Positions 5,134 through 61,659 of a DNA stretch of 64,000 nucleotides are shown one piece after another. The stretch is from a virus (Duplodnaviria > Caudoviricetes), in the IMG/VR virus record IMGVR_UViG_3300042465_005116, positions 96,001 to 160,000 of that record. The stretch is one strand, 5' to 3'. Numbering within the stretch: the first letter of the stretch is position 1; every line of letters starts with the position of its first letter. The position numbers were made by a program, and so were the translations under genes. Under the pieces are notes generated by a model that saw only the letters and a list, made by a program, of their open reading frames with translations, was not told the DNA's origin and ran no database searches.

Positions 5134-5884
5134 CTATATCATCTTCGGTTAAATCAATTTTTGAAATATCAACCCAAAATGGTTCGCTTTTAACTGTAAA
5201 ATCTCCGGTTTCTAAATAATCATTTAACATTTTTTTCTGATGTTGTTTCATTATATTTACCACCTTTGTAATATAATGAGTTTTACAATCAGTCATTTCT
5301 CTTATAAGTAGATATAAATGTTTCTTATTAAAATTTTCTATAAACTCACTTCTACGGAATAATTCTAATACTGCATCTGCAATTTGTATATCTCTTTTTT
5401 TATTAAAAATAGTAGTAAGATGTTTATCCCAATACAATAACATTAGGTCTTTAAATTCTCTAAACTCACTACCTTCCTCTACTTCATAAAAATCATTCTC
5501 CGGATTCCAACTTTCTGGCATATCGGATATTAATGCATTTTGCTTCCAACGTTTGTAGTTACCATTATTTTTTAAAATCAAATGATTCTTTGCAATAATA
5601 GTAAAATATGAAAATGCTCTTCCTTTACCTTCTTGAAACATATGCATTTTCTCTACCAATGTAGATACAACTTCGGTTTGAATATCTTTTTTAGGAACAT
5701 CAAAATATGAAAATTTAAAAGTGTTAATTACATTTTCTGCTAATTTCTCAAAAGGTGCTTTAATTTTTTCTTCGTAAAGTTTACTACGTTTTACTGGGTC
5801 TTTTAATTTATTATACTCTACAATTGCATCTTGTGCAGGTGTACCGAAATATATTTTTGATTTTGGTTTTCTTTGTTTTGCCAT
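5123..5884 (-). CDS. phage late-transcription sigma factor, T4 gp55-like
   Basis: sigma region-2-like RAFSYFTIIAKNHLI; basic N-terminus, acidic C-terminus. Confidence 0.65.
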   Translation of the reverse strand: MAKQRKPKSKIYFGTPAQDAIVEYNKLKDPVKRSKLYEEKIKAPFEKLAENVINTFKFSYFDVPKKDIQTEVVSTLVEKMHMFQEGKGRAFSYFTIIAKNHLILKNNGNYKRWKQNALISDMPESWNPENDFYEVEEGSEFREFKDLMLLYWDKHLTTIFNKKRDIQIADAVLELFRRSEFIENFNKKHLYLLIREMTDCKTHYITKVVNIMKQHQKKMLNDYLETGDFTVKSEPFWVDISKIDLTEDDIDDE

Positions 5885-5892
5885 TTTGGTAA

Positions 5893-6156
5893 TTATAATA
5901 TTTCGTTTAGGTTTTCAACAATTGTTTTTAATTCGGTAAAAGTTGCACCTACTTCATCATCGGATTCAAATGAACCACGAGTATCGATGTTCCTTAAATT
6001 CTCTAATGCTTTAGATACTTTAAATTTAACTTCTAATGTAGTTTCTACAAGAGTGTCTTCCAATTCTTCATTTTGTCTCAGTAAATTGAATATACCGATA
6101 GTAAATGTTATATTTAACACTACTGAAATCAGTAAAATGATGTAAATGTATGTCAT
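5893..6156 (-). CDS. membrane-anchored coiled-coil protein
   Basis: N-terminal TM helix; in gene run. Confidence 0.6.
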   Translation of the reverse strand: MTYIYIILLISVVLNITFTIGIFNLLRQNEELEDTLVETTLEVKFKVSKALENLRNIDTRGSFESDDEVGATFTELKTIVENLNEIL

Positions 6157-6165
6157 AGTTTGTTT

Positions 6166-6640
6166 TTATGCTTCACCCATCGGTCCATAATATATTCCTA
6201 ATTTAGAATCATCATCGGATGGTTGAGTATTTGTTTTTTTTATATTATCTTCTATTTGTTTTACTTTTGATTCAACTTTTTTATACCATTCTTTTTCTGA
6301 TATTATACCTTTATCTATTAAAAGATTTACGAGAGAATCTATTACAATACTATGATTTAAAGTATGTTGTTCTATCTGTTGAAGAATCAGTTTCTTCTGC
6401 TCCTTTTTTGTTAATTTCATTTATTAAATCTTTTATAGTAAAATTATTAGTTTCATCTAAGTTACCAAATGCTTTTTTGATTGATTCTTCATGATAACCC
6501 AATGCAGCTGCTAATCTTGCACATATGGTTTTAAATTCAAAGATATTCAATTCATCTGGTATTACAAACTCTATTTCGGATGCTTCTCTTGCATGTTCAA
6601 TGTAATCATTATCGGTGTACTTAAATATTAATCTTGCCAT
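6166..6640 (-). CDS. two overlapping hypothetical ORFs (6166-6420, 6350-6640)
   Basis: ORF track; protein-like composition; 71-nt overlap makes the first start uncertain. Confidence 0.5.
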
Positions 6641-6643
6641 AAT

Positions 6644-7261
6644 TTATAATATTTTTCCTCCTTGTTCAATTAAACTTTGTGCTTTTTTATACTTCACAAA
6701 TTCAGTAGTACCATCTTTTAATTGTACCATTACCATCTCATTTCTACCATAAGTTTTTGGTGCAATATAAGTTGTTGAATATCTACGATTTGGATTTGTA
6801 ATTAGAATTCCATTTAAGTGGTCTATTTCATGTTGTGCAACAACACATTCCATTAATCCTAAATCATTAAAAAATTCTTCGGAATCTTTCCAATCACCCA
6901 ATTCATTATCAGGTGAAAATACAACTGTCCCTAAGTTATCACATTCGACCGTAATCTTCTTTGCACGGATAGTTTTAACGGGACTCTTCATTGTTTTATC
7001 AATTGACAAACATTGTTCTACATACGCAACTGAATCCTGTGAGTATTCTACAATCTTTGGATTGATTAATACTAATGGGTCTTTTACATTAATTATACAT
7101 GCTCTAACATCTAATCCTAATTGATTAGCGGATAACCCAATACCACCGAACTTAACTAATCCACTTGCTAATATTGTAGAAATAGATTCTATATCAGCAG
7201 GTGTGAATTTAGTTTCACTAATTGATTTTGATAATTTTAATTTGTCTTTTACTATGTTCAT
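6644..7261 (-). CDS. def: peptide deformylase
   Basis: GIGLSANQLG, EQCLS (variant of EGCLS), QHEIDHLNG. Confidence 0.92.
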   Translation of the reverse strand: MNIVKDKLKLSKSISETKFTPADIESISTILASGLVKFGGIGLSANQLGLDVRACIINVKDPLVLINPKIVEYSQDSVAYVEQCLSIDKTMKSPVKTIRAKKITVECDNLGTVVFSPDNELGDWKDSEEFFNDLGLMECVVAQHEIDHLNGILITNPNRRYSTTYIAPKTYGRNEMVMVQLKDGTTEFVKYKKAQSLIEQGGKIL

Positions 7262-13399: not shown

Positions 13400-13798
13400 T
13401 TATCTATTGTATAATTTATTTATTATATGAGTTGAACTAAAGCCTTCCATCTTAGGGAAATATACGATTTCACCTACATATTCACTCCCTACAATTCGTT
13501 TACCCCTATATTCTTCTCCAATAACCATAATGGCCGGTCTCATTGTTTTAATGTGGGTTTCCAATTGTTCATCCGAATCAAATATTACAACTCTATCAAC
13601 ATATTTGATAGCTTCTAATAAGGTGATTCTACTTACAATATTATTTATAGGTCGTTGTTCTCCTTTTAATTCGGTAACCCTCTTGTCACCATCAACTCCA
13701 ACAATTAGGAAATCCCCTAACTCTGCTGCCCTCTTTAATAATTGAATGTGTCCTAAATGAACAATATCAAATGTACCATTTACCCAAACTTTTATCAT
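13400..13798 (-). CDS. cytidylyl/adenylyltransferase (HldE/RfaE domain II-like)
   Basis: NGTFDIVHLGH, KGEQRPIN, FSSTHII. Confidence 0.88.
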   Translation of the reverse strand: MIKVWVNGTFDIVHLGHIQLLKRAAELGDFLIVGVDGDKRVTELKGEQRPINNIVSRITLLEAIKYVDRVVIFDSDEQLETHIKTMRPAIMVIGEEYRGKRIVGSEYVGEIVYFPKMEGFSSTHIINKLYNR

Positions 13799-14169
13799 AA
13801 CAAATCATTTGGCGTTTTTCTATAAATTCTGTATGAATCCGAATCAAAATGTTCAGTACTTACCTCATATACAACTCCCCTTTCTTGTAAAGAAGTAAGT
13901 TGGTGTGGTGTACCTTTTTCAATATAAACTGAATCGCCTTCGTTTAAGATTTCTTTTTTTATTATACCGATTTTAGTATCAATCCATTTGAACTCAAATT
14001 GTCCATCTTGAATATACCACGATTCGTTTTTAAGCATATGGTAATGCATTGAAAACTTATCACCCTTTTCTGCGAAAACTAAAAGTTTACCACAATATTG
14101 TGCATCGTTATGAACCCATAGTTCATATCCCCACGACTTTTGTACTTTTGTTGGTCTTGTTATTATCAT
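13795..14169 (-). CDS. cupin (sugar isomerase-like)
   Basis: KSWGYE, FSMHYH..K.ESW, PHQL, EVSTEHFDSDSYR; likely start MIITRP at 14169. Confidence 0.75.
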   Translation of the reverse strand: MIITRPTKVQKSWGYELWVHNDAQYCGKLLVFAEKGDKFSMHYHMLKNESWYIQDGQFEFKWIDTKIGIIKKEILNEGDSVYIEKGTPHQLTSLQERGVVYEVSTEHFDSDSYRIYRKTPNDLL

Positions 14170-14489
14170 ACTGCGAAAGATTCTCCACACCCACATGTAC
14201 GGGATGCATTTGGGTTTATAAATTCAAATCCCTTACCATTCAATCCATCTGAGAAATTTAATTCTGTTCCGTAAAGATATAATAATGATTTGTTGTCTAC
14301 TAAAATTTTTACTCCTTTATCTTCTGCAAGATTATCTCCTGCACGTTGGTCGGTATCAAATGAAAGGTCGTATGACAATCCACTACATCCACCACCTTTA
14401 ATTGAAACTCTAACAAACGGAGTTTTAAATCCACTTTCTTCAATGAGTGAACTTAATTTTTTAGCTGCGGTTTCTGATACTGTTACCAT
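14166..14489 (-). CDS. iscA: Fe-S cluster assembly A-type carrier
   Basis: GGGCSGLSY and NPNA..TCGCGESF. Confidence 0.95.
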   Translation of the reverse strand: MVTVSETAAKKLSSLIEESGFKTPFVRVSIKGGGCSGLSYDLSFDTDQRAGDNLAEDKGVKILVDNKSLLYLYGTELNFSDGLNGKGFEFINPNASRTCGCGESFAV

Positions 14490-15948: not shown

Positions 15949-16605
15949 TTAAATAAGTTTTGATTTAGTAATCAATTCTGAATAAGGTTTCCAATTATCT
16001 CCTTTTCTAATTATTGAATAGGGTTTCCAATTCACTCCCATTTGAATATATTGTAACTCTGCATTACATCTATTTGTAATATCAACATTACTTATGTCTA
16101 TTGTTTTAGCGTATTGTCCAGTCATCCACCAAAAATTACCAGAGTACATTATATTTGTAGGGTTACTTGCTACTTCTAATAAAAAACCATATGTGTTAAA
16201 AACTTCATTATCCAAAATTCCAAATACGTTATCAATATATTGAATATTATGTAATTGCATTACATTTCTCCATCGGATAGATTCAGAATCGGTTTGTTTA
16301 GATGCCCCCTTTGTGTGTAGATAAAAAATATAATCATTATTATTAAATGATGATTTATCTCTTTCTATTAAATTTAAAGTTACAAACTCATTATTCATTA
16401 ATTTAGTATCACCAATTATAATTTTTGAATCATACTCATACATTAATTTGATTATATCGTCTACTGAATTATTATTTTCTGATATTGAGATGCCAATAGT
16501 TAATGAGTATGGTTGATTAATATATTTTTTTATTAATGCAAGTTGTTCATGTATTATAGATTCAACCCCCTCTATTGCATAGATGTGATAATATATCCGT
16601 ATCAT
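15949..16605 (-). CDS. glycosyltransferase-like protein
   Basis: IYYHIY, YIFYLHTKG, YSGNFWW pattern; family assignment tentative. Confidence 0.45.
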   Translation of the reverse strand: MIRIYYHIYAIEGVESIIHEQLALIKKYINQPYSLTIGISISENNNSVDDIIKLMYEYDSKIIIGDTKLMNNEFVTLNLIERDKSSFNNNDYIFYLHTKGASKQTDSESIRWRNVMQLHNIQYIDNVFGILDNEVFNTYGFLLEVASNPTNIMYSGNFWWMTGQYAKTIDISNVDITNRCNAELQYIQMGVNWKPYSIIRKGDNWKPYSELITKSKLI

Positions 16606-17648
16606 ATTAAATTCGTATGGGTAGTATCAATAAATTCGTATAGGTTATGAAATAGATTTGTATTTCTACCTATCTTATTAAATTCTTTTTTAAATAATTC
16701 ATGTTCTGGGTGATTAGAATCCCAAACTTGTTTTAATTTAAATTCCGCTTCAGAAAATGTTCCCCAATTAGTTATTTTACCAAAAAAAACATTTACCTTT
16801 TTGCCAAAAATAGAATACATTATATTATAAAAGGTTTCCATTTCCATATAGTTACTATCTTGAACAACAAACGAAGTCTTTACCGATTTTAATGTTTTTA
16901 TTGTAGAAATAAAATTTAAATTATTTATTAAAGTATCCCATTTACCACCTAATCTGGTTTTATTTTCATAGGTGTCACGTGTTCCGGCATCTATTGATAT
17001 CTCACAAGATGTTACATACTTATGCACATTTGGCATACTATCCCACATTTCTTTTGTCCACATTGATGCGTTTGTGTGGAAATGTATTCTTGTTAATTTT
17101 GGATATTTTTTTGGATTAAAATTTCTTAAATAATTTCTAAAACTAACCGAAACAAATGGGTCGCCTGTCCCCGTGATGTACAAAGTTTTAACGTTTGCTG
17201 AATAGTAGGTATCAATTTCATCTATTGTTTTTTCTATTCGTTCTATTCCTTTACTGCTTTCAACAATTAAATCTACTCTGCACGATGGACATTTATAATT
17301 ACAAGTCCTATCAAAATTCATTATAACATTAGTCGGTGTATTTGGTTCAACGATTGGAGTTGTATACTTTGAATTTGATTTTAAAGTAATTGGACCAGAT
17401 ACTACACTATCTGATAATAATTTACTTAAATATGGACATAATTCTTTGTTACAATATTTAAATGAACCATCTAATATAGAATTTCTAATATCAATGATTG
17501 GTTCACTATTATATACATCTTTTAAAGGATACTCACTAAGTTCTATTTTATTTGGCAACCAGGATGGACAACAAACAAACCCAACATTATTATGTATTTC
17601 TAAAGTAGTAAATGGAGTACTACAGGTGTATTGTTTTAAATCTATCAT
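16602..17648 (-). CDS. radical SAM protein with N-terminal SPASM/twitch-like domain
   Basis: C..PF...CC...YC....CP, then CNYKCPSC, TGTGDPF, ISIDAG. Confidence 0.88.
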   Translation of the reverse strand: MIDLKQYTCSTPFTTLEIHNNVGFVCCPSWLPNKIELSEYPLKDVYNSEPIIDIRNSILDGSFKYCNKELCPYLSKLLSDSVVSGPITLKSNSKYTTPIVEPNTPTNVIMNFDRTCNYKCPSCRVDLIVESSKGIERIEKTIDEIDTYYSANVKTLYITGTGDPFVSVSFRNYLRNFNPKKYPKLTRIHFHTNASMWTKEMWDSMPNVHKYVTSCEISIDAGTRDTYENKTRLGGKWDTLINNLNFISTIKTLKSVKTSFVVQDSNYMEMETFYNIMYSIFGKKVNVFFGKITNWGTFSEAEFKLKQVWDSNHPEHELFKKEFNKIGRNTNLFHNLYEFIDTTHTNLI

Positions 17649-18139
17649 AATAATTTTTCGATATTACTTCTACTTCCCTTGCGTAATCTATCTGAATGGG
17701 TTCTATCATATATATCTTCGTAATAAGTAATTGGTATATTAAGTTTAAATGCCAATTCGTTCAAATCATTATTCCATTTTAAAATATCATTATAACATAA
17801 TTCAAATATATCAGACGGAACTTCTTCGTAGTAATATGGATTATTTGAATTATAGTTTTTTGTTTTTGAAAAATAAGTTTGGTATGCATGAGATTCTGCA
17901 CATTCTAATATATTTTTTCTAGATAATAATATTACTCTATCGAACTCCTTACTTAATTGAAAATTGTTTGGATGATGACATATTATTGTTTTGAGGATTA
18001 CATTCTTTTCACCATTATATTGAACTCTACCACTTCCATCAAATGGTTCAAATAACGGAGTTAATCCATTTTCTTTTGCTAATTTATGTAACAAAGAAGT
18101 CGAACCGGTTCTGGGTAATGCAATTATTAATATACTCAT
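17645..18139 (-). CDS. sulfotransferase-like P-loop protein
   Basis: IALPRTGSTSL (PAPS 5'-PSB-like), FEPF, LSRKN, TYYEDI. Confidence 0.65.
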   Translation of the reverse strand: MSILIIALPRTGSTSLLHKLAKENGLTPLFEPFDGSGRVQYNGEKNVILKTIICHHPNNFQLSKEFDRVILLSRKNILECAESHAYQTYFSKTKNYNSNNPYYYEEVPSDIFELCYNDILKWNNDLNELAFKLNIPITYYEDIYDRTHSDRLRKGSRSNIEKLL

Positions 18140-18654
18140 ATGATATTAAATTTTGCTTTCTTTTTAGAAAACCATATTATCAATACATCTCGTTCCCCAC
18201 TAATTATCTTTTTTACCTCGTGGGATTCACTACCGCCGTTAAACACAACATAATCTCCTTCATTTTTTAATGATACGTTTTTATCATTTATATACATTTC
18301 ACCACCTGTAAAATCAGATGATAATAGGATACTAATCGTCTTATGTGTTGTAAATCTATCTTTATGTTTTTTAGCATAACCATTTTCACCATATATCAAT
18401 CTATGCATTATATATAAGTTATCAATTGGTTCTTCAAATTTATTACAAATAAATTCATTTAAATTTTTATTTTCTAAAGTATATACCCAACTATTATTTG
18501 GAAAAAGAGAAACACCTTCATCTTTTTTAAGATGGGTTGCAAAATACAATTGAGGGTGGGATGCTTTTATGTATGCTAAGTCTTCCTCATTCATTATTCT
18601 AGTAGTACTTAATTCTGATTTTAAAAAAAGTAAATCTTCTGTTGATAATTTCAT
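18136..18654 (-). CDS. 2OG-Fe(II) oxygenase
   Basis: HKD, FTGGE, HEVKKI..GER. Confidence 0.8.
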   Translation of the reverse strand: MKLSTEDLLFLKSELSTTRIMNEEDLAYIKASHPQLYFATHLKKDEGVSLFPNNSWVYTLENKNLNEFICNKFEEPIDNLYIMHRLIYGENGYAKKHKDRFTTHKTISILLSSDFTGGEMYINDKNVSLKNEGDYVVFNGGSESHEVKKIISGERDVLIIWFSKKKAKFNII

Positions 18655-19283
18655 ATAAGTTTATTTTTTTTATTTTCAAATTCTACAACCAATTCGTCTA
18701 TATTTAAAAATTGGTGGAGTTTAAGATAAAAATCATAACAACCTTTTGAACCGGGATGCCAATCTATCGGGTCACCACCTTCATCTGCTATAGAAGTTAC
18801 TTTTATTAATTCTACAAACTCCTTTGTCTTTTCATAAAAATCATCGTTCCATGTTACAAAGATTGGTTCATATTTTTTATAAAAATATTTTAATTTTTTA
18901 ATAAATAATATTTCAGAATCCCTATCCCCATTATGCCAATGTTCAGTTTCTTTGACCCTTAGTTCTAATAGTTTTTTAGCAAACGATTTATCACTATACC
19001 ATTCCCAATTTAAATATTTTAAGTTGTGATTTGTATCTCTTTCCCCAAAATATCTTCGTGGGAATCTGCCGGGTGCGGTAAATACTATAACTAATCTATC
19101 GCCTTCTACATAATTTGGTATATTTCCAGTTTGATATAATATAGAATTATTGTCAGACCCAAATTTTCCCAATTTAATAACATTATAATGATTAGATAAA
19201 TAATCTGTCCAATGTATTTCTGGTAAATCCCAATCTACAAAACTATCACCACAAATGTATATGTTATTTTTTTTATTTGACAC
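18651..19283 (-). CDS. SGNH-like protein
   Basis: ICGDSF, LGKFGSDN, DWHP. Confidence 0.65.
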   Translation of the reverse strand: MSNKKNNIYICGDSFVDWDLPEIHWTDYLSNHYNVIKLGKFGSDNNSILYQTGNIPNYVEGDRLVIVFTAPGRFPRRYFGERDTNHNLKYLNWEWYSDKSFAKKLLELRVKETEHWHNGDRDSEILFIKKLKYFYKKYEPIFVTWNDDFYEKTKEFVELIKVTSIADEGGDPIDWHPGSKGCYDFYLKLHQFLNIDELVVEFENKKNKLI

Positions 19284-19813
19284 TATATAATAGTTTTATT
19301 TGTTGGGCTATTTCCTTTTCTTAATCGGCCGGGCCCATTTAAATCAAATATATCTTCGTAATATGTTATAGGTATATTAATACTTTTAGAAATAAATTCT
19401 AAATCAGTATGATACGAAAGAACTTGTTCATATCTCCATTGGTCATGTGGAGTAGTCTTCCAAAGATAATTTTCATAAAACATAAATTTTTTCATATCAT
19501 GATAATAATTTAAATAAGCCCAACTTTCTCCACACGCTTTTAAATCTTTTCTTGATAATAAAATAACTTCATCAAATTCTTTTGTTAAATTTATTAACCA
19601 CTCAATCCTATCTTCTTGTTTAATTTCATCCAAACTTTGAAAAACAAGTGTTTTAACTACAATATTATTTTCGTTAGAATTATATCTTTCAATACCAATG
19701 CTTAGTGGATTAAATGGTTCAAATAAATATTTTTTTATATTGTATTTTTTTCTCATCGTTTCCCCTAAACTCGTAGAACCTGTTCTCGGTAATGCAATTA
19801 TTAAAATTTTCAT
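19283..19813 (-). CDS. sulfotransferase-like P-loop protein (paralog of 17645-18139)
   Basis: IALPRTGSTSL, FEPF, LSRKD, TYYEDI. Confidence 0.65.
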   Translation of the reverse strand: MKILIIALPRTGSTSLGETMRKKYNIKKYLFEPFNPLSIGIERYNSNENNIVVKTLVFQSLDEIKQEDRIEWLINLTKEFDEVILLSRKDLKACGESWAYLNYYHDMKKFMFYENYLWKTTPHDQWRYEQVLSYHTDLEFISKSINIPITYYEDIFDLNGPGRLRKGNSPTNKTII

Positions 19814-20376
19814 AACAATGTTTTATTAGATTTTAATTTAGGATAATCAAAATCAGTTTCCGTCATCCAAATATTTAATGCGTAACGCGTACCACTTACA
19901 ACTGGTAGTACTCCATGATAAGTAGTCGAACCATTAAATGATATGGAATCTCCTAATTTCAAATCGGATAGTGTTAATCCATTTAATGTTTCAAAATGAT
20001 AAGGAGGATTCACATCTTCGGTTAAAGCAAATTGACCCCCTTCAAAATTATCAGAAAGAACAATTACTGTGGTTAATTCACTTGATTTATCCTTATGTAG
20101 ATTAAGATATCTACCATCATAATATGAAGTTAGACTGATATTAAAATTCTTTAAATTAAATGATAGGTAATCAAACCATAATTTAAAGTTTCCGTTTTTA
20201 TAATTATCGGTTAATAAATTAATTATTCTTTTTTTAAATTCTTCATCATACATTCTTCTACAATCCCAATGTTCGGTTGGACTATATGAAAAGGGTTCAC
20301 CAAATTTAAGACAAAAATCAATTATATCATTGGCAGTTTCTCTATTACAAAAATTATTATTTATGGTATAATTCAT
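19810..20376 (-). CDS. 2OG-Fe(II) oxygenase
   Basis: LHKD, FEGG, HGVLPV.SGTRY. Confidence 0.82.
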   Translation of the reverse strand: MNYTINNNFCNRETANDIIDFCLKFGEPFSYSPTEHWDCRRMYDEEFKKRIINLLTDNYKNGNFKLWFDYLSFNLKNFNISLTSYYDGRYLNLHKDKSSELTTVIVLSDNFEGGQFALTEDVNPPYHFETLNGLTLSDLKLGDSISFNGSTTYHGVLPVVSGTRYALNIWMTETDFDYPKLKSNKTLL

Positions 20377-21194
20377 AATAGATGCGAATTTTTTGGTTTA
20401 GTATGTGTTAATAAATTACCTTCACTTATAAATTTATATAATTCATCGGCAATTAATTTATATCCATTATTACTTGGATGTTTACCTGCGGTAGTACTTA
20501 TCCAATTATTACCATCCTCCCATACATCTTTTCTATTGGTATCAATTAATAAATTTGCCATTGTTTTAGTTTGATAACCCCAATATTTATCACTCTCGAT
20601 TAAATTGGTTTTATCAACTAACTTATGAATATTTTTATTAATCATTATATCAAACGCGTCACAAAAAAGATATCTGATTCCTAATTCTTTAAATATAAAT
20701 TGAAGATGTAAAATATAGTTTTGATTCACTATATCATAGTAAGTATCATTGAATAAATTACCTATGTAATAATCTCTAAAATTTTTTTCCGCCCTATTAT
20801 AGTTTATATTATCACTATTAACTCCATCAAAAATATACTTTAAAAGGTGTTCTTTACTTTTATATCGTTTGCCCCATATAAAAAAATCATCTTTGGTTGG
20901 GAAAAAAGGTAACGGGTCTCTTAGAGAAGATGACCACATAATAACAACAAAATCATCTTGAGTGATGATTTCATTTTTTAACTGATAAGATACTGCGTTA
21001 AATATTGCATTATTTGAGAATGCACCAACTCCATTATTTTTAACTTCACATTTTAATAGTTCTGATAAGTGTTTCGGCCAACAATATTTTTGTCTTATTA
21101 TTGTCCTTTGTTCTGGATTATCAGTAGTATATTCATCTTCAATATTTCCACCAACCCCCTCAGTCCAACTATCCCCAAAGGTAAACAATTTCAT
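20373..21194 (-). CDS. SGNH-like protein
   Basis: FGDSWTEG, NGVGAFSN, HPSNNGY. Confidence 0.68.
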   Translation of the reverse strand: MKLFTFGDSWTEGVGGNIEDEYTTDNPEQRTIIRQKYCWPKHLSELLKCEVKNNGVGAFSNNAIFNAVSYQLKNEIITQDDFVVIMWSSSLRDPLPFFPTKDDFFIWGKRYKSKEHLLKYIFDGVNSDNINYNRAEKNFRDYYIGNLFNDTYYDIVNQNYILHLQFIFKELGIRYLFCDAFDIMINKNIHKLVDKTNLIESDKYWGYQTKTMANLLIDTNRKDVWEDGNNWISTTAGKHPSNNGYKLIADELYKFISEGNLLTHTKPKNSHLL

Positions 21195-21205
21195 AATGCA
21201 TAATA

Positions 21206-21349
21206 TTAAAGATGTGTTTCTTTAATTTTAGCTACAACTGCTTGAAATGCAGATGCTATTTTTGTTTTAACATCGGTTGATAAAGAACCAATAACCGGTT
21301 TAATAACGGTAAGTGGTCTTTCTTCTTTAATTTTTGGTGTCTTTGCCAT
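21206..21349 (-). CDS. 47-aa basic peptide
   Basis: MAKTPKIKEERPLTVIKPVIGSLSTDVKTKIASAFQAVVAKIKETHL*; not in ORF track. Confidence 0.55.
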   Translation of the reverse strand: MAKTPKIKEERPLTVIKPVIGSLSTDVKTKIASAFQAVVAKIKETHL

Positions 21350-21379
21350 AATATTTTTTTATTTTAATTTTTATTTTAA

Positions 21380-22867
21380 TTAAAGTTTAGGTGGGAGCCC
21401 TTGATTACAAACCGGACACCAGCTACTACAAGGACCAGACCCGCAATAATAACTACCACATCCCCAACAACCATTATGCATCACACTAAATACTCCATCT
21501 CCTATATCCGCTAAAAATAAATCACCTGGTTCAAAGTCTAATGAATATATTGTTTTATATTCAAACACCATTTCTAATCCAGTAATTTCAATGGTTGTTA
21601 ATTCATTTGTATTTATATCGGTTACAACTAATTTATCGCCAATATATAAACTATTTACTTTTTCAAATCTAGTTGCGGTTGAATCTTTTTCTTCAATATA
21701 ATACACACATGATGGAGTATCACTCCAAGTTTTACCATCTGCAAGTGTTATCTGTATCATTACCGTTTCAACTGATGCAGATACCATTGCCGTTAATTCG
21801 GATTGTAATGATGTTAAGGTATCGTTTGATTGCTGTAGTGTACTATCCCATCCATATGTCACTATTTCATTTGTAAAAGCTTTAGCTTCATTTTCATTTG
21901 AATCTATAAAATTTATAGAACGAACATGGTCACCTAATTGTATAGTACTAACATTTGTTAATGAACCATCATAGTTTAGGATATTTGAATCATCATCGGT
22001 ATGGTAATCGTTCTCAGTTTTACCTATTTCCTTTGTAATATATTTATATCTTGTTTTTTGATTTAATTTTTTGGTGCCAGTAACAAATTCATCAGCGGTA
22101 AACGAAACTGGTATTATTGAAGATTGAGTGTATCCACCCATATTAATAATATCTAAATTTGAACCATATATAATATCAATTCCTCTTATAATTGAGTATC
22201 TACCGTCTACCAAATTATCCTCTGAAAATATGAATTCTTGTATTAAATAATTACTTTCCGTTAAATTTATGGTATCAACTAATTCAGTATTATTTGAAAC
22301 TGTATATAATGCAGGATATTGTGTTTTATCGTACTGAGGATAACGATATTTTATTAATATGTTTGGATTTGTGGTAGTAGTATAATCTACTTCATCTAAT
22401 GTATTTAAATTTAATGTATCAGATGTATAATTCGTTTTTGGAATATACCCCGAATCTTTCATTAAATTAAAAAATTCAAATTTATCAGCACAATACGTTT
22501 CATCCACTAATGCGGTTGTATCAAACGCCTGTCTTAAAATAAATTTAGTATCAGTATCTTCTATAAATGGTACAGTAACCGAACCTTGCGGTACAGCATG
22601 GTCAATATATGTTATATTATTTTCTACACATTTTTCTTGTAATATTTTTTTAAATCTATTTGGTTGATTTAAGGGTTTGTGTGAATCGCCTTCTGTCCAT
22701 ATATAATGGAACTCAGTAATATTATTACTACTTAACATATTGAATAACGTAGTATAATCTAATAAATCTGCACCATCATTATAAATTGTGGTATTTGTGT
22801 TTATTTCTAAAAACTTAACCGAATTATTTTTTTGTAGATAATCACTACCAATTATTGTTGCTTTCAT
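21380..22867 (-). CDS. circularly permuted ATP-grasp-like domain + Hint domain + Cys-rich C-terminal peptide
   Basis: N-terminal D..KFLEINTN, ILIK, YLIQEFI; Hint-like DGSLTNVSTIQLGDHV...IYSLDFE...VMHN; tail with six Cys. Confidence 0.65.
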   Translation of the reverse strand: MKATIIGSDYLQKNNSVKFLEINTNTTIYNDGADLLDYTTLFNMLSSNNITEFHYIWTEGDSHKPLNQPNRFKKILQEKCVENNITYIDHAVPQGSVTVPFIEDTDTKFILRQAFDTTALVDETYCADKFEFFNLMKDSGYIPKTNYTSDTLNLNTLDEVDYTTTTNPNILIKYRYPQYDKTQYPALYTVSNNTELVDTINLTESNYLIQEFIFSEDNLVDGRYSIIRGIDIIYGSNLDIINMGGYTQSSIIPVSFTADEFVTGTKKLNQKTRYKYITKEIGKTENDYHTDDDSNILNYDGSLTNVSTIQLGDHVRSINFIDSNENEAKAFTNEIVTYGWDSTLQQSNDTLTSLQSELTAMVSASVETVMIQITLADGKTWSDTPSCVYYIEEKDSTATRFEKVNSLYIGDKLVVTDINTNELTTIEITGLEMVFEYKTIYSLDFEPGDLFLADIGDGVFSVMHNGCWGCGSYYCGSGPCSSWCPVCNQGLPPKL

Positions 22868-22931
22868 AAATATTTTATTTATTTCTTCTGAATGTATCTA
22901 TAAATATATTAAAATTGAATTTAAGACCATT

Positions 22932-23234
22932 TTAAATGATGGTGGGATTTTTTTTAATTTCTAGAGGTTCTAAATAGTTAGAATCAACTTCATTCCATTT
23001 TTTTAATCCACATGCATTATAAGTTGTTGAAAATACTTTTTTATTCAATGGACACCCACATTCACCACAATATGCACTCCATTTTATTCCCTTTATTACT
23101 TCCTTTCTATAATCACATCCTAAACAAACATCAAGTCTTAATTTAGCTAATTCCTCTTGTTGAATATTTGGGTTGTATGAAATTTTCCAAGCTTCAAATA
23201 TTTCTTTATAATTAATCTTAGGTATAAGGGGCAT
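22932..23234 (-). CDS. small Cys-rich metal-binding protein
   Basis: CLGC, CGECGC, C..KKW. Confidence 0.65.
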   Translation of the reverse strand: MPLIPKINYKEIFEAWKISYNPNIQQEELAKLRLDVCLGCDYRKEVIKGIKWSAYCGECGCPLNKKVFSTTYNACGLKKWNEVDSNYLEPLEIKKNPTII

Positions 23235-23235
23235 A

Positions 23236-23973
23236 TTATATTAATGTTTTATTATTTTTTTGAATATCGTAATAATCATAAATATCGTTATATTTTTTTA
23301 TAAACTCATCATTTAATTTTAATTCACATTCAAAGTGTTGACTTCCGTTTGATTTTTCCATTTTAAATGGTTTACCGGTTTTATTAGATACCCATTCCTC
23401 TAATTCTCCAAAATTTCCAAATTCAAACCATTTTATTCTTTTGTTATTATTATGCCAATATGATACCGGCCGGAATAAAATTAATAAAATATTTTCCATA
23501 TAATCATCAACATACTTTTCTATTCCATTTCTTTTTGTAAATTCTTTAATTACTAACATTTGAGAAGTTGGTGAGATTAAATCTAAATCTTTAAAAAATA
23601 ATATATCATCTATATTTAATTTTTTAAGTACATTTACTAATTCGGTTGGATATTTTATACGTTCCATTTCGACCAAATCAATTATATGTTTCCACAATGA
23701 AATGAATCGTTCATATCTATTTCTTTTAATTGTTATAATGTCATATTCATTTCCAAATTTGGTAATCAAACCATTTAATGATTCATGACTATGTACCATA
23801 TAATCGGCCAACTCCTCATTACTCATAGATAAATCTATTCTACTCTTCCATTTATTAATGAATTTTTGGTCAAGATATTTTATATCAAATTCACTTCTTA
23901 AACATGATATATAAAAAGAAGTTGATGCACATCTTGGTAATGAAATAAATAAAAATTTATTCTCTACTAACAC
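23236..23973 (-). CDS. sulfotransferase-family-like protein
   Basis: LFISLPRCASTS, RNRYERFISLW. Confidence 0.6.
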   Translation of the reverse strand: MLVENKFLFISLPRCASTSFYISCLRSEFDIKYLDQKFINKWKSRIDLSMSNEELADYMVHSHESLNGLITKFGNEYDIITIKRNRYERFISLWKHIIDLVEMERIKYPTELVNVLKKLNIDDILFFKDLDLISPTSQMLVIKEFTKRNGIEKYVDDYMENILLILFRPVSYWHNNNKRIKWFEFGNFGELEEWVSNKTGKPFKMEKSNGSQHFECELKLNDEFIKKYNDIYDYYDIQKNNKTLI

Positions 23974-24611
23974 TATATTAACGATTTTTGGTTTTTAATA
24001 AAATCAAATCCAACATTACCTGCCATAACAATTCTATCTAACGTTGAATTTGATGCAGCATTTGGAGAATGTGGAACATCTGCCTTCATTATAATTAAAT
24101 CATCTTCTTCTGGTCTTATCCAATATTCCTTATCTTCTTTTGATTTAAAATATAAAACACCGTCATCACCATTCATTATATCTGGCATTTGAATGTAATA
24201 AACGTATGTATAGTGTGGAATAAAGTCTTTATTTTTTTTATTAATTTCGGTATGTATATGATATTTTTCATCAGTATAAAAATTTTCTTGTACAGGATTT
24301 TTAGAACGAACTACATTTACCCAAGCATCTGTATTAATCTTATTATAATTTATACCGATTTCATTATAAATTTCTTTACATTTATTAATACCAATTTGAA
24401 CAATTTCATCCAATTTTGTTTCTACCTTAATATCACCAATAAAATTTAAATGTTCATTCCATTCTTTTTTATAACCAAACCCATCAGTTTTAACATTAGG
24501 CTGGGATTCTATAATAGAATATGCCTCTTTTAAAAACAATTGTTTATCACTTATTCGATTTAATTTTACTTTCCAAATATAAGTTGTCTCATCAAAAAAT
24601 ATCTTTTCCAT
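23973..24611 (-). CDS. 2OG-Fe(II) oxygenase-like
   Basis: WVNV, HIH, YVYY, PHSP...RIV.AGN. Confidence 0.7.
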   Translation of the reverse strand: MEKIFFDETTYIWKVKLNRISDKQLFLKEAYSIIESQPNVKTDGFGYKKEWNEHLNFIGDIKVETKLDEIVQIGINKCKEIYNEIGINYNKINTDAWVNVVRSKNPVQENFYTDEKYHIHTEINKKNKDFIPHYTYVYYIQMPDIMNGDDGVLYFKSKEDKEYWIRPEEDDLIIMKADVPHSPNAASNSTLDRIVMAGNVGFDFIKNQKSLI

Positions 24612-24617
24612 ATTATA

Positions 24618-25253
24618 TTAATTTAGTTTTTTATAAAATATATCAGCTAATTCTTTATGACCTACTTCAGAAAAATGGGCATCGTTAATTACGCCATTAG
24701 TTTCATCTTGTAATCTATTTAATAAAGTTCCCACATACCAATCTGTTGGTAGTAATTGTTTTTTAAGATGAACATCAGTACATAAAGCAAAGGGTGACCA
24801 AAAAATAACTTTAATGCCTTTTAATTTAAATATAGTACTAAGTAATTTAGACCAATTAACTATTTCATCCCAATATAACCTACTCATCCTATTAATCCGA
24901 ATTTGCTCTAATGTATTTGTATCAATAAATTTATGTAATTCTAATTCAGATTGTACATGTCGAATAGTAACCCATTTGTTATTTTTTTCTAATCGAAATC
25001 GGGAAGGATGTGACCAACCTATTATAACAATATCACCACTATTTATCGTGTCCATTTTAGTAATAATAGTGTCAAATATAGTATTATTATCTGCACCTCC
25101 AACACCTAGTTGAATAACATCAGTATTTAACATGATTGCTAAATGGTCTGAAAATATTTTTGGGGTATAACCTTTCCATTCACTATATTGTTTACCCAAC
25201 CCACCTTGTTTTTCCCATGTTGTGGAAAATGAATCACCAAATACCCAAATCAT
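24618..25253 (-). CDS. SGNH-like protein
   Basis: VFGDSFS, GVGGADN, DAHFSEVGH. Confidence 0.68.
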   Translation of the reverse strand: MIWVFGDSFSTTWEKQGGLGKQYSEWKGYTPKIFSDHLAIMLNTDVIQLGVGGADNNTIFDTIITKMDTINSGDIVIIGWSHPSRFRLEKNNKWVTIRHVQSELELHKFIDTNTLEQIRINRMSRLYWDEIVNWSKLLSTIFKLKGIKVIFWSPFALCTDVHLKKQLLPTDWYVGTLLNRLQDETNGVINDAHFSEVGHKELADIFYKKLN

Positions 25254-25813
25254 AAAAGATTTTGTTTTGTTGAATTAGTTTTAACTAATGATATCCAATT
25301 TACTAATGAATATCTAATGCCGGCTCTGATGGGAGTTACCCTATGTGTTAATCTCGAATTAAAAATATATAATGTTCCAATTTTATTTTCTATTGGTACT
25401 AACTCACCTTTAAGGTTTTTAATTTCTAATACACCACCTTCATATGAATTATTTAATTGAATTACTATCGATGTAAATCTATCTCTATATATAGTATCGG
25501 TACTATCGACATGCCAATCAAAATATTCACCTTCTTTATATTCAGTAAATTGAAAATCTCCCAAACCAGTAACTTCCATTCCATTTATATTGAAAGTTTC
25601 TCTTAATTTATTTGTTAATCTTTCATTTAAAAATCCTAAATCAGATATCCAAGCAACCGATGATTTTCTAGTTTTTTTAGTAGGTATGGTATTAGAATCA
25701 CCGGTATATACTTCTGCATCTGATAATGTTAATTCTTTTTTGCAATTATTTAAAATGAAATCACACTCTTCGGGTGATAGAAAGTTTTCAAATATGTCTA
25801 TATTGTCAATCAT
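25250..25813 (-). CDS. 2OG-Fe(II) oxygenase (prolyl-4-hydroxylase-like)
   Basis: WHVD, YEGG.L, HRVTPI..G.RYSLVNW. Confidence 0.88.
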   Translation of the reverse strand: MIDNIDIFENFLSPEECDFILNNCKKELTLSDAEVYTGDSNTIPTKKTRKSSVAWISDLGFLNERLTNKLRETFNINGMEVTGLGDFQFTEYKEGEYFDWHVDSTDTIYRDRFTSIVIQLNNSYEGGVLEIKNLKGELVPIENKIGTLYIFNSRLTHRVTPIRAGIRYSLVNWISLVKTNSTKQNLL

Positions 25814-27392: not shown

Positions 27393-27985
27393 TCTAAAAC
27401 TATATTGATTTGTTTAGTAATTTTTGCTTCAATCATTGTACATTTTAAACGTAGGGTATCCCCTCTCATTTTATTAACCGGTGCAATCATTGTGTTTATC
27501 TCACCATTCGTTCCACTATATGATGCTGGATTGCAAGTAGGTATTAGTACATCTCTCCAATTCGTAAGTGGTGGTAAGTTTACATAAGTAAGTTGACCGG
27601 TAAATTCATTGATGTAGGTTTTAGTAATCTTTGCTACAACATCATCTTTCCATAACCACCAATATAAATTACTTTCCCATTCAACTTTAATTGGTTCTTT
27701 GGTATTTTTGAGAGTACCAGTAACCCTATGTGTTGTTTGGTTTGTATTTGGATTTAATTGTAAATGATAATACCCATTCGCATCTTGTGGTAATCGACCA
27801 TCTAATGTAAAATCATTCGGATTATAAGTAACCTTTGTGGGTGTGGTATTTGTTTTTGTTTGAACATCCGGTCCCCATTTTGAAATAGGAGTGGGTATAT
27901 CATCTTTACTGCAAGCAGTAAATAATAAAGAACTTAATACTAACCATTTGATTCTCATAACAATTTGTTTAAGATTGATTCCCAA
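27389..27985 (-). CDS. lipoprotein
   Basis: LLFTAC-SKDD lipobox-like signal; start probably MRIKWL. Confidence 0.6.
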   Translation of the reverse strand: MGINLKQIVMRIKWLVLSSLLFTACSKDDIPTPISKWGPDVQTKTNTTPTKVTYNPNDFTLDGRLPQDANGYYHLQLNPNTNQTTHRVTGTLKNTKEPIKVEWESNLYWWLWKDDVVAKITKTYINEFTGQLTYVNLPPLTNWRDVLIPTCNPASYSGTNGEINTMIAPVNKMRGDTLRLKCTMIEAKITKQINIVLE

Positions 27986-28440
27986 GTCGGATATTCATTC
28001 CATTCTTTTGTTTCATATGCCCAACCAAATTTAAGTAACTCACCTTTGAACTCTCCTGCCCCATTCTTAATTCGGTCATCAATTAGATAATCACCTGCCA
28101 AAAGGTCTTTTCGGTGAGTAACAACCATTTTTTTGTGAAAGAGATTTCCAAAGTGATTCTCAATCCAATATCGTTTGTCAGTTGAAGCATCAGGGTTTCC
28201 CCACGGTGCTGCAGTTGCGATAAACATTTCATACTTACCACTTTCGGCCAACTTCTTAACAGCCTCAATAGCTCCTTCATATGGAGGTGGGTTTCGGAAT
28301 ATACCGGGAATATGGTCAGGACATTTTTTGTATTTATCAACTAAGTGTGGGTGGAGTTCAAACCACTTGTCAAACTCGGCTTTTAAATCTACTAAAACGC
28401 CATCCATGTCAATGTAAAGTATCTTTTTATTTTCAGTCAT
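27955..28440 (-). CDS. 5'(3')-deoxyribonucleotidase (HAD)
   Basis: IDMDGVL, IATAAPW, DYLIDD. Confidence 0.9.
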   Translation of the reverse strand: MTENKKILYIDMDGVLVDLKAEFDKWFELHPHLVDKYKKCPDHIPGIFRNPPPYEGAIEAVKKLAESGKYEMFIATAAPWGNPDASTDKRYWIENHFGNLFHKKMVVTHRKDLLAGDYLIDDRIKNGAGEFKGELLKFGWAYETKEWNEYPTWESILNKLL

Positions 28441-31796: not shown

Positions 31797-32156
31797 TTAA
31801 ATTAATTTTCTTACCTCTTTTTTTTTCTGAATAGGTTTTCTTGTATTTTGGATGTCTTCTTTATATTTGACTATCTTTGCACATATTTCATATTCTTCCT
31901 TTTCTTGAAACCAATTTTTACAATGGTCTAATGCTTCAATGAAATCACTCTTAGGTACGATTGAAATTGCACTAGCATTTGGATGAACTAATATAGCAAC
32001 TTCACTCAATCCTTTTTTTGCTGCCCTATAAATGTTTGTTGAAACTTGATTCATTACTTCGAACCCACGTTTTTCTAAAAAACGAGCAACCCTTATATTG
32101 TTATTAGGGTCTAAATATTTTTTCCAATCAAGTGTAGTAAAAGTTCTGCTTTTCAT
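31797..32156 (-). CDS. hypothetical protein with UvrB/C-like motif
   Basis: EEYEICAKI. Confidence 0.55.
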   Translation of the reverse strand: MKSRTFTTLDWKKYLDPNNNIRVARFLEKRGFEVMNQVSTNIYRAAKKGLSEVAILVHPNASAISIVPKSDFIEALDHCKNWFQEKEEYEICAKIVKYKEDIQNTRKPIQKKKEVRKLI

Positions 32157-36191: not shown

Positions 36192-36217
36192 AACCTTTTC
36201 TTATAACCAAATATACA

Positions 36218-36258
36218 AAAAAAACCTCACATTACCAAATAATTTATGAGGTTTTTTT
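36218..36258 (-). terminator. terminator at end of tRNA array, overlapping a host-type promoter (36208-36240)
   Basis: AAAAAACCTCA...TGAGGTTTTTT. Confidence 0.6.
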
Positions 36259-36262
36259 ATAG

Positions 36263-36588: not shown

Positions 36589-36604
36589 ATATATCTTTTT
36601 TTTG

Positions 36605-44367: not shown

Positions 44368-45510
44368 TTAAATTAAAGCCCTTGTTTGTTTTGATTCTAA
44401 ATGCCAAAAATTATGTATTATATGTTGTCTATTACCAATCATTTTTAATTGTTTTAATAATACATTATATAGTGGATGTGATTCTTCTTGAACTGAACGG
44501 TCTTTTAACCATTCTTTTGTTTGATGATTCCAATCTTGTATTGCTCTAAATGTAATTGTATATCCATTTTCAGGACTCCACTTTCCATATATATCCTCAA
44601 TCATATTTACAAAATCATTCATTTCACGTACATTATGGTCTTGAACTACGAATGAAAAATTTCTATTATTAAATTTTAAGGTAGAATGATATTTTAAATT
44701 AGCCATTAAAGTATCCCAATTCCCATTTAACCTTACTTTATTTTCATATGTTTCTTTAGTTGCTGCATCAATTGATATTTCATATTCACGAACATATGGA
44801 TGAATTGGTTTAACCGATTCCCACATTTCCTGTGTCCACATATTTCCGTTTGAAACTATATAAATTTGTTTCAATTTTGGATATCGTTTGTAATCAAATG
44901 TTTGCATAAACTTTCTAAATACATTTGAATAAAATGGGTCACCACTACCTGTAATATGAATCATCTCAACCTCATTACTAAATTGTTCATTAATATCTTT
45001 TAAAATATTATCAACAAATTTATCTTTACGATTTGGTATAGTATCTAATCTACAAGATGGACATTTCAAATTACATGCGTAATCAAAATTAAAATAAATT
45101 AATTTTGGAAATAATTTCCATTCACTATCAGTTTCAGAAAGATTATATTTTTTAAAAAATTCTTCTCTCTTATAAAAGTATCCAAAATATACTGATTGTC
45201 CATAGTCCGATTCAAACTCATTTAATAATACCTTTTCATCAGTATTAATAAGTTTAGATAAAAATGGGCACTTAGTTTTTGAACAATATTTATATGAACC
45301 ATCTAAGATTCCTTCTCTTACCTTTGTATTAATATCATTAAACCAAACATCTTTTAATTCTTTAGTTTCACCGGGATTTAAATGAGACCAATCTTCAAAT
45401 GGAATATCCATCCAATCTGGACAACAACTCCAAGTCGAATTATGGAATACCATAAAATCTTCAAATGGTGCTCTACAAATATAGTTTTTTAAATTAACCT
45501 TCTCACTCAT
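44368..45510 (-). CDS. radical SAM protein with SPASM-like domain (paralog of 16602-17648)
   Basis: CRAPF..CCP..YC..KCP; CNLKCPSC; ITGSGDPF; ISIDAA. Confidence 0.88.
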   Translation of the reverse strand: MSEKVNLKNYICRAPFEDFMVFHNSTWSCCPDWMDIPFEDWSHLNPGETKELKDVWFNDINTKVREGILDGSYKYCSKTKCPFLSKLINTDEKVLLNEFESDYGQSVYFGYFYKREEFFKKYNLSETDSEWKLFPKLIYFNFDYACNLKCPSCRLDTIPNRKDKFVDNILKDINEQFSNEVEMIHITGSGDPFYSNVFRKFMQTFDYKRYPKLKQIYIVSNGNMWTQEMWESVKPIHPYVREYEISIDAATKETYENKVRLNGNWDTLMANLKYHSTLKFNNRNFSFVVQDHNVREMNDFVNMIEDIYGKWSPENGYTITFRAIQDWNHQTKEWLKDRSVQEESHPLYNVLLKQLKMIGNRQHIIHNFWHLESKQTRALI

Positions 45511-60088: not shown

Positions 60089-60493
60089 CTATTTCCTCAT
60101 CCAGTGAGGTAGGCTGTTTATCATATTATATAGTTGTGCTGATATAGAGAATGATGATGATATTGGTGCCGATAGGTTTTCTAAATCTATCAATCTATCT
60201 ACCAATAATTCCCAATTTTGTCTGAACCCAGTTATTGTCCGAATCGCATCGGTTTGGACTTGTATTTGAGTATGTAGTTTATTTTTAGGATTGCCCAACC
60301 AAATGATATGCTCATGTGGGTTTGGATTGTTGATATGTAAGGATAATTCCCACTTTGGTTTTTGTGGTAAGTTTAGATTCAATACATCCGCAAGGTATTC
60401 CGTTTCATACGCATTGTGTATTGGGTTAACTATACAATAACCTCTATATGTAATACCACTCAATTTCTCCCACCCTTTTATTTTTACTCCCAT
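60089..60493 (-). CDS. hypothetical protein
   Basis: ORF track. Confidence 0.55.
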   Translation of the reverse strand: MGVKIKGWEKLSGITYRGYCIVNPIHNAYETEYLADVLNLNLPQKPKWELSLHINNPNPHEHIIWLGNPKNKLHTQIQVQTDAIRTITGFRQNWELLVDRLIDLENLSAPISSSFSISAQLYNMINSLPHWMRK

Positions 60494-61659
60494 TAGATTA
60501 AACTTTTAGGTTTAGTTATATTACCAATCTCATAAAGCCTATCTATGAAAAGGTCTTTACATATTTGTTTACGATACTCTGAATTAAAGTATAACTCCTG
60601 ATTATGTCTGCAGATGGATACCACCTCCGGTGAATCCCACACTCTTGCTAATTCTACGGCACTATCTATAATTTTAGTTATTTTATCTCCACCACTCATA
60701 TCATCATAATCCTCATTGATTATGGAATCGAATGTTTTGAACCCCATCTCCCTTAGGGCTTTGAGGTGTCCTTTAGATGCTGATATAACAAATGGTCTTC
60801 CTAAGTATATTGCCTTAAATGTTTTTTCCGTTAGGTGTATTGCATCTTCATCTAATATCGTTTCCGTTACGATATCTACTTTACTTCGGTAATACCATTC
60901 TGGGTTTATGGTGAATAGGAATTCATCGTGGTATGATAACTTACTACCATACATTACATCCCCTTCCAATTGGATACCATCAAACTCATCTATGTTTATA
61001 TTCAGTTCTGATATTAGTTTCTTACTTATCTTATTAGGGGGTACAAAGTTATCTACCCACGTGAAACGAGTATCTCCCAACAATCCCCTATTAAACAACT
61101 CTTCTATGATTCGGTATTTGTGATGATACATCCTTCGGTTTAAACATAAGAACTCCTTATCCGGTTGGATGGTAGTGTTAATACCAACCTCTCCAATATA
61201 CTCCTTCATATGATTATAGGTTGATAAGAAAAAATGTGGGAAAAAGAAAGTATTCAATGCGTAATTATCATATCGTATTTTATGTACCCCAATTCTAGAG
61301 GAATCATTCTTTACAACAATCAAGCGATTGATATCAATTCCCTTTAATTTTAACGCATTCAAAAAGGATACACTCAATTTATCTACCCTCTGATGTGTCT
61401 CTCTAGAGAAATCCCCCATAAAGTAAAAGTTCTGATGTTGTATCCTATCCAATAGGTTTAGGAACTCATCTGATATAGTATTGGTTGTATATGGAAGCTT
61501 GGGACTGGTTTCCCATACAAAGACTAAGAAGTTTAGTTTGCTCGGGTCTATGATATCAGTATTCACATTCTTAAAACGAATACCTATATCCATTCGTTCA
61601 AGCATCTCCCTAACACCAGAACCTTCCATTATATCGGTATACCAAAAATCCATTTCCAT
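60493..61659 (-). CDS. glycosyltransferase-like phage protein
   Basis: FLCLNRR..H, IVTET, LTEKTFK....PF, GFKTFD..I.E.YD; function tentative. Confidence 0.45.
   Translation of the reverse strand: MEMDFWYTDIMEGSGVREMLERMDIGIRFKNVNTDIIDPSKLNFLVFVWETSPKLPYTTNTISDEFLNLLDRIQHQNFYFMGDFSRETHQRVDKLSVSFLNALKLKGIDINRLIVVKNDSSRIGVHKIRYDNYALNTFFFPHFFLSTYNHMKEYIGEVGINTTIQPDKEFLCLNRRMYHHKYRIIEELFNRGLLGDTRFTWVDNFVPPNKISKKLISELNINIDEFDGIQLEGDVMYGSKLSYHDEFLFTINPEWYYRSKVDIVTETILDEDAIHLTEKTFKAIYLGRPFVISASKGHLKALREMGFKTFDSIINEDYDDMSGGDKITKIIDSAVELARVWDSPEVVSICRHNQELYFNSEYRKQICKDLFIDRLYEIGNITKPKSLI

Follow-up and report, generated by a model that had tools for sequence, protein, structure and literature searches.

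Positions 15,949 to 25,813 of a 64,000-nucleotide stretch of Caudoviricetes DNA (IMG/VR record IMGVR_UViG_3300042465_005116, positions 96,001 to 160,000), here called the window, encode a cluster of unrelated enzymes that share a short C-terminal tag. Across related phages this tag is found around one gene (21380-22867 in the window), which encodes a circularly permuted ATP-grasp ligase domain followed by a Hint domain and a variable tail with an invariant lysine. We consider with a probability of about 0.65 that its product, the ligase-Hint protein, is the reader of the tag. Tag and ligase together point to a mode of enzyme recruitment that has not been described, in which the former would be bound by the latter. 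A preliminary description of the window had taken the tag for a docking or targeting peptide that gathers unrelated folds on one scaffold, or else for a C-degron, with the ATP-grasp-Hint protein as a possible scaffold. The present analysis retains a recognition tag at the protein level and favours the C-degron and virion targeting less; co-occurrence makes the ligase-Hint protein the best-supported reader, through a binding that we infer.

A strictly terminal tag on unrelated enzymes

The twelve [LI][LI]-COOH endings of the preliminary description are all present on the minus strand at the genes named, and the exception it had noted, 24618-25253, holds. Such endings occur in 12 of the 14 open reading frames (ORFs) of at least 55 amino acids (aa) in 15949-25813, the ligase gene (end PPKL) being counted, vs 8 of the 87 other minus-strand ORFs of the window (Fisher p 8e-9), which bears out the expected excess over background; inside proteins the dipeptide has a frequency of 2.7%. 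The two-residue end is real, but the motif is longer and comprises four residues after a Lys-rich linker. In related phages its consensus is K/N-[TSKN]-[LI]-[IL]-COOH (120 related loci, 17 families, 631 proteins), with Lys (54%) or Asn (14%) at position -4, Thr (30%), Ser (27%), Lys (16%) or Asn (9%) at -3, Leu (76%) or Ile (17%) at -2 and Ile (70%) or Leu (25%) at -1. The linker contains 26.5% Lys vs 9% inside proteins. This linker had escaped the preliminary description. So had the invariant lysine of the tail, the small helix ORF and the option that the tag is itself a substrate of the ligase.

Over all loci, 27 sequence clusters have at least three tagged members. They include 2-oxoglutarate (2OG)-Fe(II) oxygenases, radical SAM enzymes, flavin halogenases, SET proteins, an Asp/Asn hydroxylase, a methyltransferase and AMP-binding proteins as well as, by motif, sulfotransferase-like and SGNH-like proteins. 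Adjacent genes for APS kinase, DUF2061, nucleotidyltransferase, Hsp20 and fibre proteins carry no tag. Of 2139 neighbouring proteins, 743 have the four-residue motif at their end, and one, two or three residues further inward it is found only 3, 2 and 2 times; a free alpha-carboxylate therefore appears to be what selection keeps. The number of residues beyond the domain was rejected as a general discriminator of tagged and untagged proteins, only SGNH proteins being different (18 vs 9.5, with models mostly from tagged members).

Conservation of the tag at the protein level is supported by its codons. DNA of the last two codons differs in 50-62% of pairs while the aliphatic class is left in only 1.6-2.2%, and position -5 is changed in 68% of pairwise comparisons. 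At -2 every Leu and Ile codon occurs and synonymous changes are frequent. An artefact at the DNA level, in which ATGA overlaps and the A-rich start site of the next gene produce the endings, could be imagined since such overlaps end 7 of the 12 tagged genes and starts are A-rich at -3, -6 and -12. It is refuted to near certainty because the tag is equally frequent in genes that do not overlap: tagged families bear it in 93.5% of cases with an ATGA overlap, 90.7% with a one-base overlap and 93.1% with none. These families were chosen by tag frequency, which makes the level circular but not its equality among overlap classes. In other families the corresponding frequencies are 12%, 18.5% and 6%.

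The tag accompanies the ligase gene

At least two tagged neighbours were found within 5 kb of 184 of 196 distinct ligases, and the tag consensus is identical in all four ligase subfamilies. Genome-wide counts come from related phages, not from the window's own genome; these phages were picked independently via thyA and then split into ligase-positive and ligase-negative. Among the homologues of tagged families, 0/15 are tagged in the ligase-negative genomes G008, G009, G011 and G012 (80-100% complete) vs 41/75 in the complete ligase-positive genomes G001, G005 and G006 (Fisher p 3.6e-5, which ignores kinship). In gene families, G005 and G006 overlap more with the ligase-negative genomes than with G001 and G007, so the tag does not simply follow core relatedness. 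Only 16 families, the ligase included, are present in all four ligase-positive genomes and in no negative one, and the ligase is the only single-copy family among them that occupies the middle of the tagged cluster. No ligase bears the tag itself (0/72).

Several other candidate readers were rejected. The tag is kept around ligases with the tails K, A-P-K, K-P-K-Q-P-K-K, Y-K-A and R-C-A-Y-K, and in subfamily 3, from which the zinc-ribbon protein is nearly absent, 242 of 649 neighbours are tagged. As tags remain with Cys-free tails and mostly without zinc ribbon, neither a Cys-rich tail nor the zinc-ribbon protein is the reader. The neighbouring Hsp20 is not among the positive-only families and is missing from many cluster maps. 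Phage-encoded PDZ domains (PF17820) were found in 0/4 phage genomes at E 0.1 (controls 14/14). The C-terminus of the tail (K-L) was considered as a mimic of the tag; in subfamily 2 tails end variously and the tag is unchanged. The elements constant across tagged loci are the ligase with its first Hint and its tail lysine, and the helix ORF.

A zinc-ribbon paralogue at 47486-47746 is untagged and ends at a conserved K-W, about 19 residues earlier than 22932-23234; the family also occurs in ligase-negative phages.

The ligase-Hint protein

The predicted fold of 21380-22867 has a mean predicted local distance difference test score (pLDDT) of 93 over residues 1-465. Residues 1-282 match permuted ATP-grasps, namely YgiC (7uka, Z 10.0, root-mean-square deviation 4.0, 200 residues aligned), GspS (2io7, Z 9.2) and glutathione synthetases (Z 7-8.8), while RimK, ArgX and TTLL11 are weaker structural matches (Z about 6.2-6.5; Atlas TM 0.45). 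The permuted fold carries D and E-x-N metal ligands near its N-terminus, aligned with those of YgiC. Among 143 diverse homologues, D9, E21, N23, R112, D122, K173 and R228 are conserved in 97-100%, and the segment R112-D116-A119-D122-Y125 is conserved in 94-100% across subfamilies. YgiC has an Arg (R100) two positions ahead of the Asp, for which the phage ligase has Gly, Ser or Ala, and the model aligns only from YgiC residue 94, the N-terminal helical segment (residues 1-93) being missing. For the ligase domain no Pfam family reached its cut-off and sequence searches of the PDB gave no name. Deposited phage records contain no match to the ligase (0 among 50,697), and a search of GTDB genomes with the subfamily-3 alignment found one, on a 2.8-kb contig of a metagenome-assembled genome.

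Residues 286-465 match Hint domains with Z up to 16 (6tmm, Z 15.9). H464 (97%) and N465 (99%) are conserved among homologues and Cys1 is absent, columns 288-289 being mainly Tyr/Pro and His/Gly/Lys; with the terminal His-Asn kept and no Cys1, the Hint would be able at most to cleave at its own C-terminal end. Members of subfamily 3 (e.g. L427, L431 and L465) have a second and sometimes a third Hint, which does bear Cys1, just before the invariant Lys, and this extra Hint places an unusual Lys at +1. Its removal would leave K, A-P-K or S-P-K. One locus, L583, carries two ligase-Hint genes (2653-3996 and 5105-6649) with a separate tiny helix ORF behind each; one of the two tails is minimal (P-S-G-A-K-P-V) and the other Cys-rich.

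The tail after His-Asn is hypervariable and ranges from long Cys-rich peptides down to at most five residues. Lys is found in 190/190 short tails (exactly one in 168; 68% expected). There is no conserved acid and the tail's own C-terminal residue varies, so an acyl donor would probably be external. In L059 (10001-11695), as in L491, L500, L503 and L517, the tail is fused directly after the Lys to an S74-type-like domain, a self-cleaving tail-fibre chaperone recognised here by motif only, whose cleavage would leave the Lys terminal.

A helix ORF of 30-55 aa (47 aa in the window) directly follows 159 of the 196 ligase genes. It may supply the helix missing from the ligase fold, since the ligase is without the counterpart of YgiC residues 1-93. 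Alignment of the 47-aa ORF with YgiC 1-100 gave no hhalign signal, the PDB held no match to it, and no form fused to the ligase was found.

The tail as a possible substrate of the tagged enzymes

Halogenase loci have Trp in the tail in 52/52 cases, and none of the 30 Trp-less tails occurs with a halogenase. Two lineages combine short tails with a halogenase and both tails, W-K and A-K-Q-L-W, bear Trp; within subfamily 1, losses of the halogenase coincide with loss of C-P-W. These observations are suggestive of the tail as a substrate of the halogenase. The zinc-ribbon protein accompanies Cys-rich tails in 46/48 cases vs 2/29 otherwise and one sulfotransferase-like family in 42/48 vs 0/29, both associations being confounded with subfamily. 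In L581 (11233-12935) a tagged AMP-binding protein, a possible source of an acyl group, is followed by a 76-aa DUF6356 ORF, and the ligase cluster there has the tail R-C-A-Y-K.

Proposed mechanism and alternatives

The tag may be viewed as a plug-in peptide whose C-terminal carboxylate is free, and the ligase-Hint protein, probably jointly with the 47-aa ORF, as its reader. The unrelated tailoring enzymes would dock on it in turn, reversibly, and would thereby be brought to its Lys-bearing tail and modify it. The ligase would then acylate the tail Lys with some acid and the Hint may free the product through Asn cyclisation. Such a system would invert the recognition known from peptides that are made by the ribosome and modified after translation (RiPPs), the precursor being a folded receptor and each enzyme a peptide carrier. 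We tentatively favour this docking because the choice of enzymes seems to go with the residues of the tail and because a single Lys could hold no more than one enzyme. Several points weigh against it. The genome-level co-occurrence comes from seven genomes without phylogenetic independence, tagged genes are also found at a distance from the ligase, and one ligase (L485, 9001-10473) has no tagged neighbour within 5 kb, possibly as an exception or a decayed system. The link between halogenase and Trp is based on no more than 5 changes along the tree (sign test p 0.25). In addition, K or A-P-K tails are still accompanied by several tagged enzymes (2OG, SGNH and sulfotransferase-like), more than a minimal tail could use, and other substrates must therefore exist. 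Prediction of a complex of ligase-Hint residues 1-465, the 47-aa ORF, ATP and the 30-residue tagged tail of 23236-23973 gave a median of 0.51; among unrelated-peptide controls one gave 0.39 and the others 0.00, and the result was counted for neither side.

The same reader could also act covalently, which we regard as rather unlikely. Here the ATP-grasp domain would phosphorylate the Leu-Ile carboxylate and link the tag to the tail Lys through its epsilon-amine, after which the Hint might release the isopeptide. This ATP-driven, single-turnover protein tagging would be a phage conjugation system unrelated to ubiquitin or Pup, with K-T-L-I tags from about 27 families as its clients. It earns its place because the amine acceptor is invariant and the sole such chemical handle in the tail, because no tail acid is conserved while the tail end varies, and because the nearest folds, YgiC and GspS, activate peptide C-termini (PMC11762307). 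The need of the tag for a free C-terminus, the conservation of R112 to Y125 across subfamilies, like that of the tag, and the precedent of Hint and isopeptide in BIL2 (PMC8616854) are also consistent with it. It would on the other hand allow one enzyme per precursor, a poor fit with enzymes that seem to track tail residues, it gives an enzyme carrying a lone Lys no evident purpose, and the YgiC Arg is absent. A different reader is less probable still: the tag would send the enzymes to the virion, an assembly site or the membrane, to decorate glycans or structural proteins there; the reader would be some other protein of phage or host, and the ligase a fellow client. Long fibre-like genes often adjoin the clusters, tagged enzymes are present with minimal tails and at distant loci, and the chemistry of the enzymes is akin to the decoration of proteins and glycans. 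Yet the ligase never bears the tag, the four genomes have no PDZ domain, no structural-looking family is found in all ligase-positive genomes and absent from the negative ones (at BLAST-level sensitivity), and the 2OG cluster beside the tail fibre of cyanophage S-RSM4 has no common ending. Marginally more doubtful is a C-degron that clears the enzymes after use. C-motif 2 of MuA, recognised by ClpX, has basic residues 3-6 from the end and a non-polar terminus. The Lys-rich linker, the aliphatic end and the strictly terminal position fit this definition, and ClpP is encoded in 2 of the 4 ligase-positive genomes; however, two complete tagged genomes are without ClpP, in relatives lacking the ligase the same families go without the tag although the same proteases are to be expected in their hosts, and the tag never occurs on the neighbouring APS kinase, DUF2061 and nucleotidyltransferase.

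Clusters of 2OG-Fe(II) oxygenase, sulfotransferase-like, SGNH and halogenase genes are common in aquatic phages, and the tag names a candidate hub and substrate for them. Docking, if true, would be a plug-and-play recruitment code in which a captured enzyme joins the pathway by gaining a short tail. The covalent alternative, if true, would be a new protein-ligation chemistry of obvious value as a tool, ATP-driven trans-splicing with a four-residue ligation tag.

Comparison with known systems

No description of the tag or of the ligase-Hint-Lys layout was found in the literature searched, most subscription papers being outside its reach. Like a RiPP cluster, the locus has genes for oxygenases, halogenases, radical SAM enzymes, sulfotransferase-like proteins and methyltransferases around that of a ribosomally made precursor whose C-terminal segment varies, and it has a built-in release step. 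It differs in that the place of a short leader peptide is taken by a folded 465-aa ligase-Hint unit and that the core can shrink to one Lys. Compared with the pair of leader and RiPP recognition element, the partners would be exchanged, with the enzymes carrying the short peptide and the precursor the folded domain.

RimK, LysX/ArgX and tubulin-tyrosine ligase-like ATP-grasps recognise protein C-termini, on which RimK and tubulin-tyrosine ligase also act. They are unpermuted and serve one dedicated acidic substrate, with neither a Hint nor a common tag on unrelated enzymes. YgiC/YjfC, GspS and the eukaryotic glutathione synthetase are closer through their permuted ATP-grasp fold and aligned D and E-x-N ligands. 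YgiC joins peptides to spermidine (PMC11762307), and the acyl transfer to a primary alkyl amine proposed here would be of the same kind; the phage ligase differs from YgiC and GspS by the loss of the first 93 residues and of the Arg before the Asp and by its fusion to a Hint and a putative amine acceptor. BIL2 of Tetrahymena BUBL1 is a Hint that forms an isopeptide between Lys and the C-terminus of a protein (PMC8616854). It shares with the phage protein, as do bacterial intein-like Hints, the Hint fold and the terminal His-Asn, but works without ATP through Cys1, whereas the phage Hint lacks Cys1 and is preceded by an ATP-grasp. The N-terminal Cys or Ser that serves inteins as splicing nucleophile is likewise absent from it.

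Peroxisomal targeting signals (PTS1), PDZ ligands, encapsulin cargo-loading peptides and ClpX C-motifs are, like the tag, short, transferable terminal labels on unrelated folds. The phage tag differs from them by its consensus, by the lack of a phage PDZ reader, by the bacterial host implied below and by its tracking of the ligase gene. It does not follow PTS1 ([SAC]-[KRH]-[LM]-COOH), its penultimate residue being L/I in 93% and K in 1%. PTS1 is moreover read by Pex5, in eukaryotic cells. A class I PDZ ligand reads [ST]-x-hydrophobic-COOH, where the tag has Ser/Thr in 57%, Lys in 16% and Asn in 9%. As for encapsulins, no shell-like family turned up in the cluster maps or the positive-only list, in which no search was aimed at shells.

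Source phage and genes of the window

The window has a GC content of about 30% and is coded almost entirely on the minus strand. DNA near-identical to it is contained in lake metagenomes of several studies, and only 0.06 of its words were found in a single RNA run. Relatives of the phage are 250-335 kb long and encode a T4-like gp23; the nearest cultured match to the phoH of the window is that of Flavobacterium phage immuto (57%). As gp23 and phoH imply a bacterial host, and because of the immuto match and of A-rich translation starts with few Shine-Dalgarno sites in 2 of 3 genomes, we infer a host among the Bacteroidota. Tagged enzyme clusters occur in large lake and marine bacteriophages.

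Table. Features of the tagged cluster and distant tagged genes (window positions).
Position	Strand	Feature	End	Remarks
15949..16605	-	218-aa putative modifying enzyme	K-S-K-L-I	family 4/4 tagged; no Pfam match
16602..17648	-	radical SAM enzyme	H-T-N-L-I	PF04055 E 2.4e-6; homologues tagged 73/84
17645..18139	-	sulfotransferase-like P-loop protein	I-E-K-L-L	putative, from PRTGST motif
18136..18654	-	2OG-Fe(II) oxygenase	K-F-N-I-I	PF13640
18651..19283	-	SGNH-like protein	K-N-K-L-I	putative, from GDS motif
19283..19813	-	sulfotransferase-like protein	N-K-T-I-I	putative
19810..20376	-	2OG-Fe(II) oxygenase	N-K-T-L-L	PF13640
20373..21194	-	SGNH/GDSL-like protein	N-S-H-L-L	weak PF00657 and DUF6071
21206..21349	-	conserved 47-aa ORF, strand and amphipathic helix		structure by pattern
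21380..21472	-	ligase-Hint tail after His-Asn, 30-aa Cys/aromatic peptide		single Lys, K494 (21386-21388)
21473..22012	-	Hint domain, residues 286-465, without Cys1		His464-Asn465 kept
22013..22867	-	circularly permuted ATP-grasp ligase domain, residues 1-285		candidate tag reader
22932..23234	-	zinc-ribbon-like Cys protein	N-P-T-I-I	
23236..23973	-	sulfotransferase-like protein	N-K-T-L-I	putative, from PRCAST motif; family 73/73 tagged
23973..24611	-	2OG-Fe(II)-like protein	Q-K-S-L-I	PF13640 E 1.8e-4
24618..25253	-	SGNH-like protein, untagged	KKLN	
25250..25813	-	2OG-Fe(II) oxygenase	K-Q-N-L-L	PF13640 E 4.5e-14
31797..32156	-	119-aa protein adjoining phoH	V-R-K-L-I	homologues tagged in several ligase-positive phages, far from cluster
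44368..45510	-	distant radical SAM paralogue, tagged	T-R-A-L-I	
60493..61659	-	distant 388-aa protein, tagged	P-K-S-L-I	family also inside ligase clusters

The endings TRALI at 44368, PKSLI at 60493 and PNDLL at 13795 that had been claimed for distant genes are all as described, but the last, that of a cupin, probably lies outside the system; its homologue in G005 ends in DLKK and its gene sits in an ATGA overlap. The label of 60493 as glycosyltransferase-like finds no support in Pfam. An NT5C-type nucleotidase (27955-28440) ends in N-K-L-L in 6/6 homologues, which may be the end of a helix and not a true tag.

Carbamoyltransferase, peptide deformylase, cytidylyltransferase-like, cupin and IscA-like genes were found at 3418-5133, 6644-7261 and 13400-14489, and the carbamoyltransferase-, cupin- and IscA-like families belong to the 16 families restricted to ligase-positive genomes. 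The region around 36200-43800 has raised GC and low coding density and is probably a transfer RNA region. Finally, three plus-strand ORFs, each starting with M-I-K-L, are present at 48768-50067 amid otherwise minus-strand coding.

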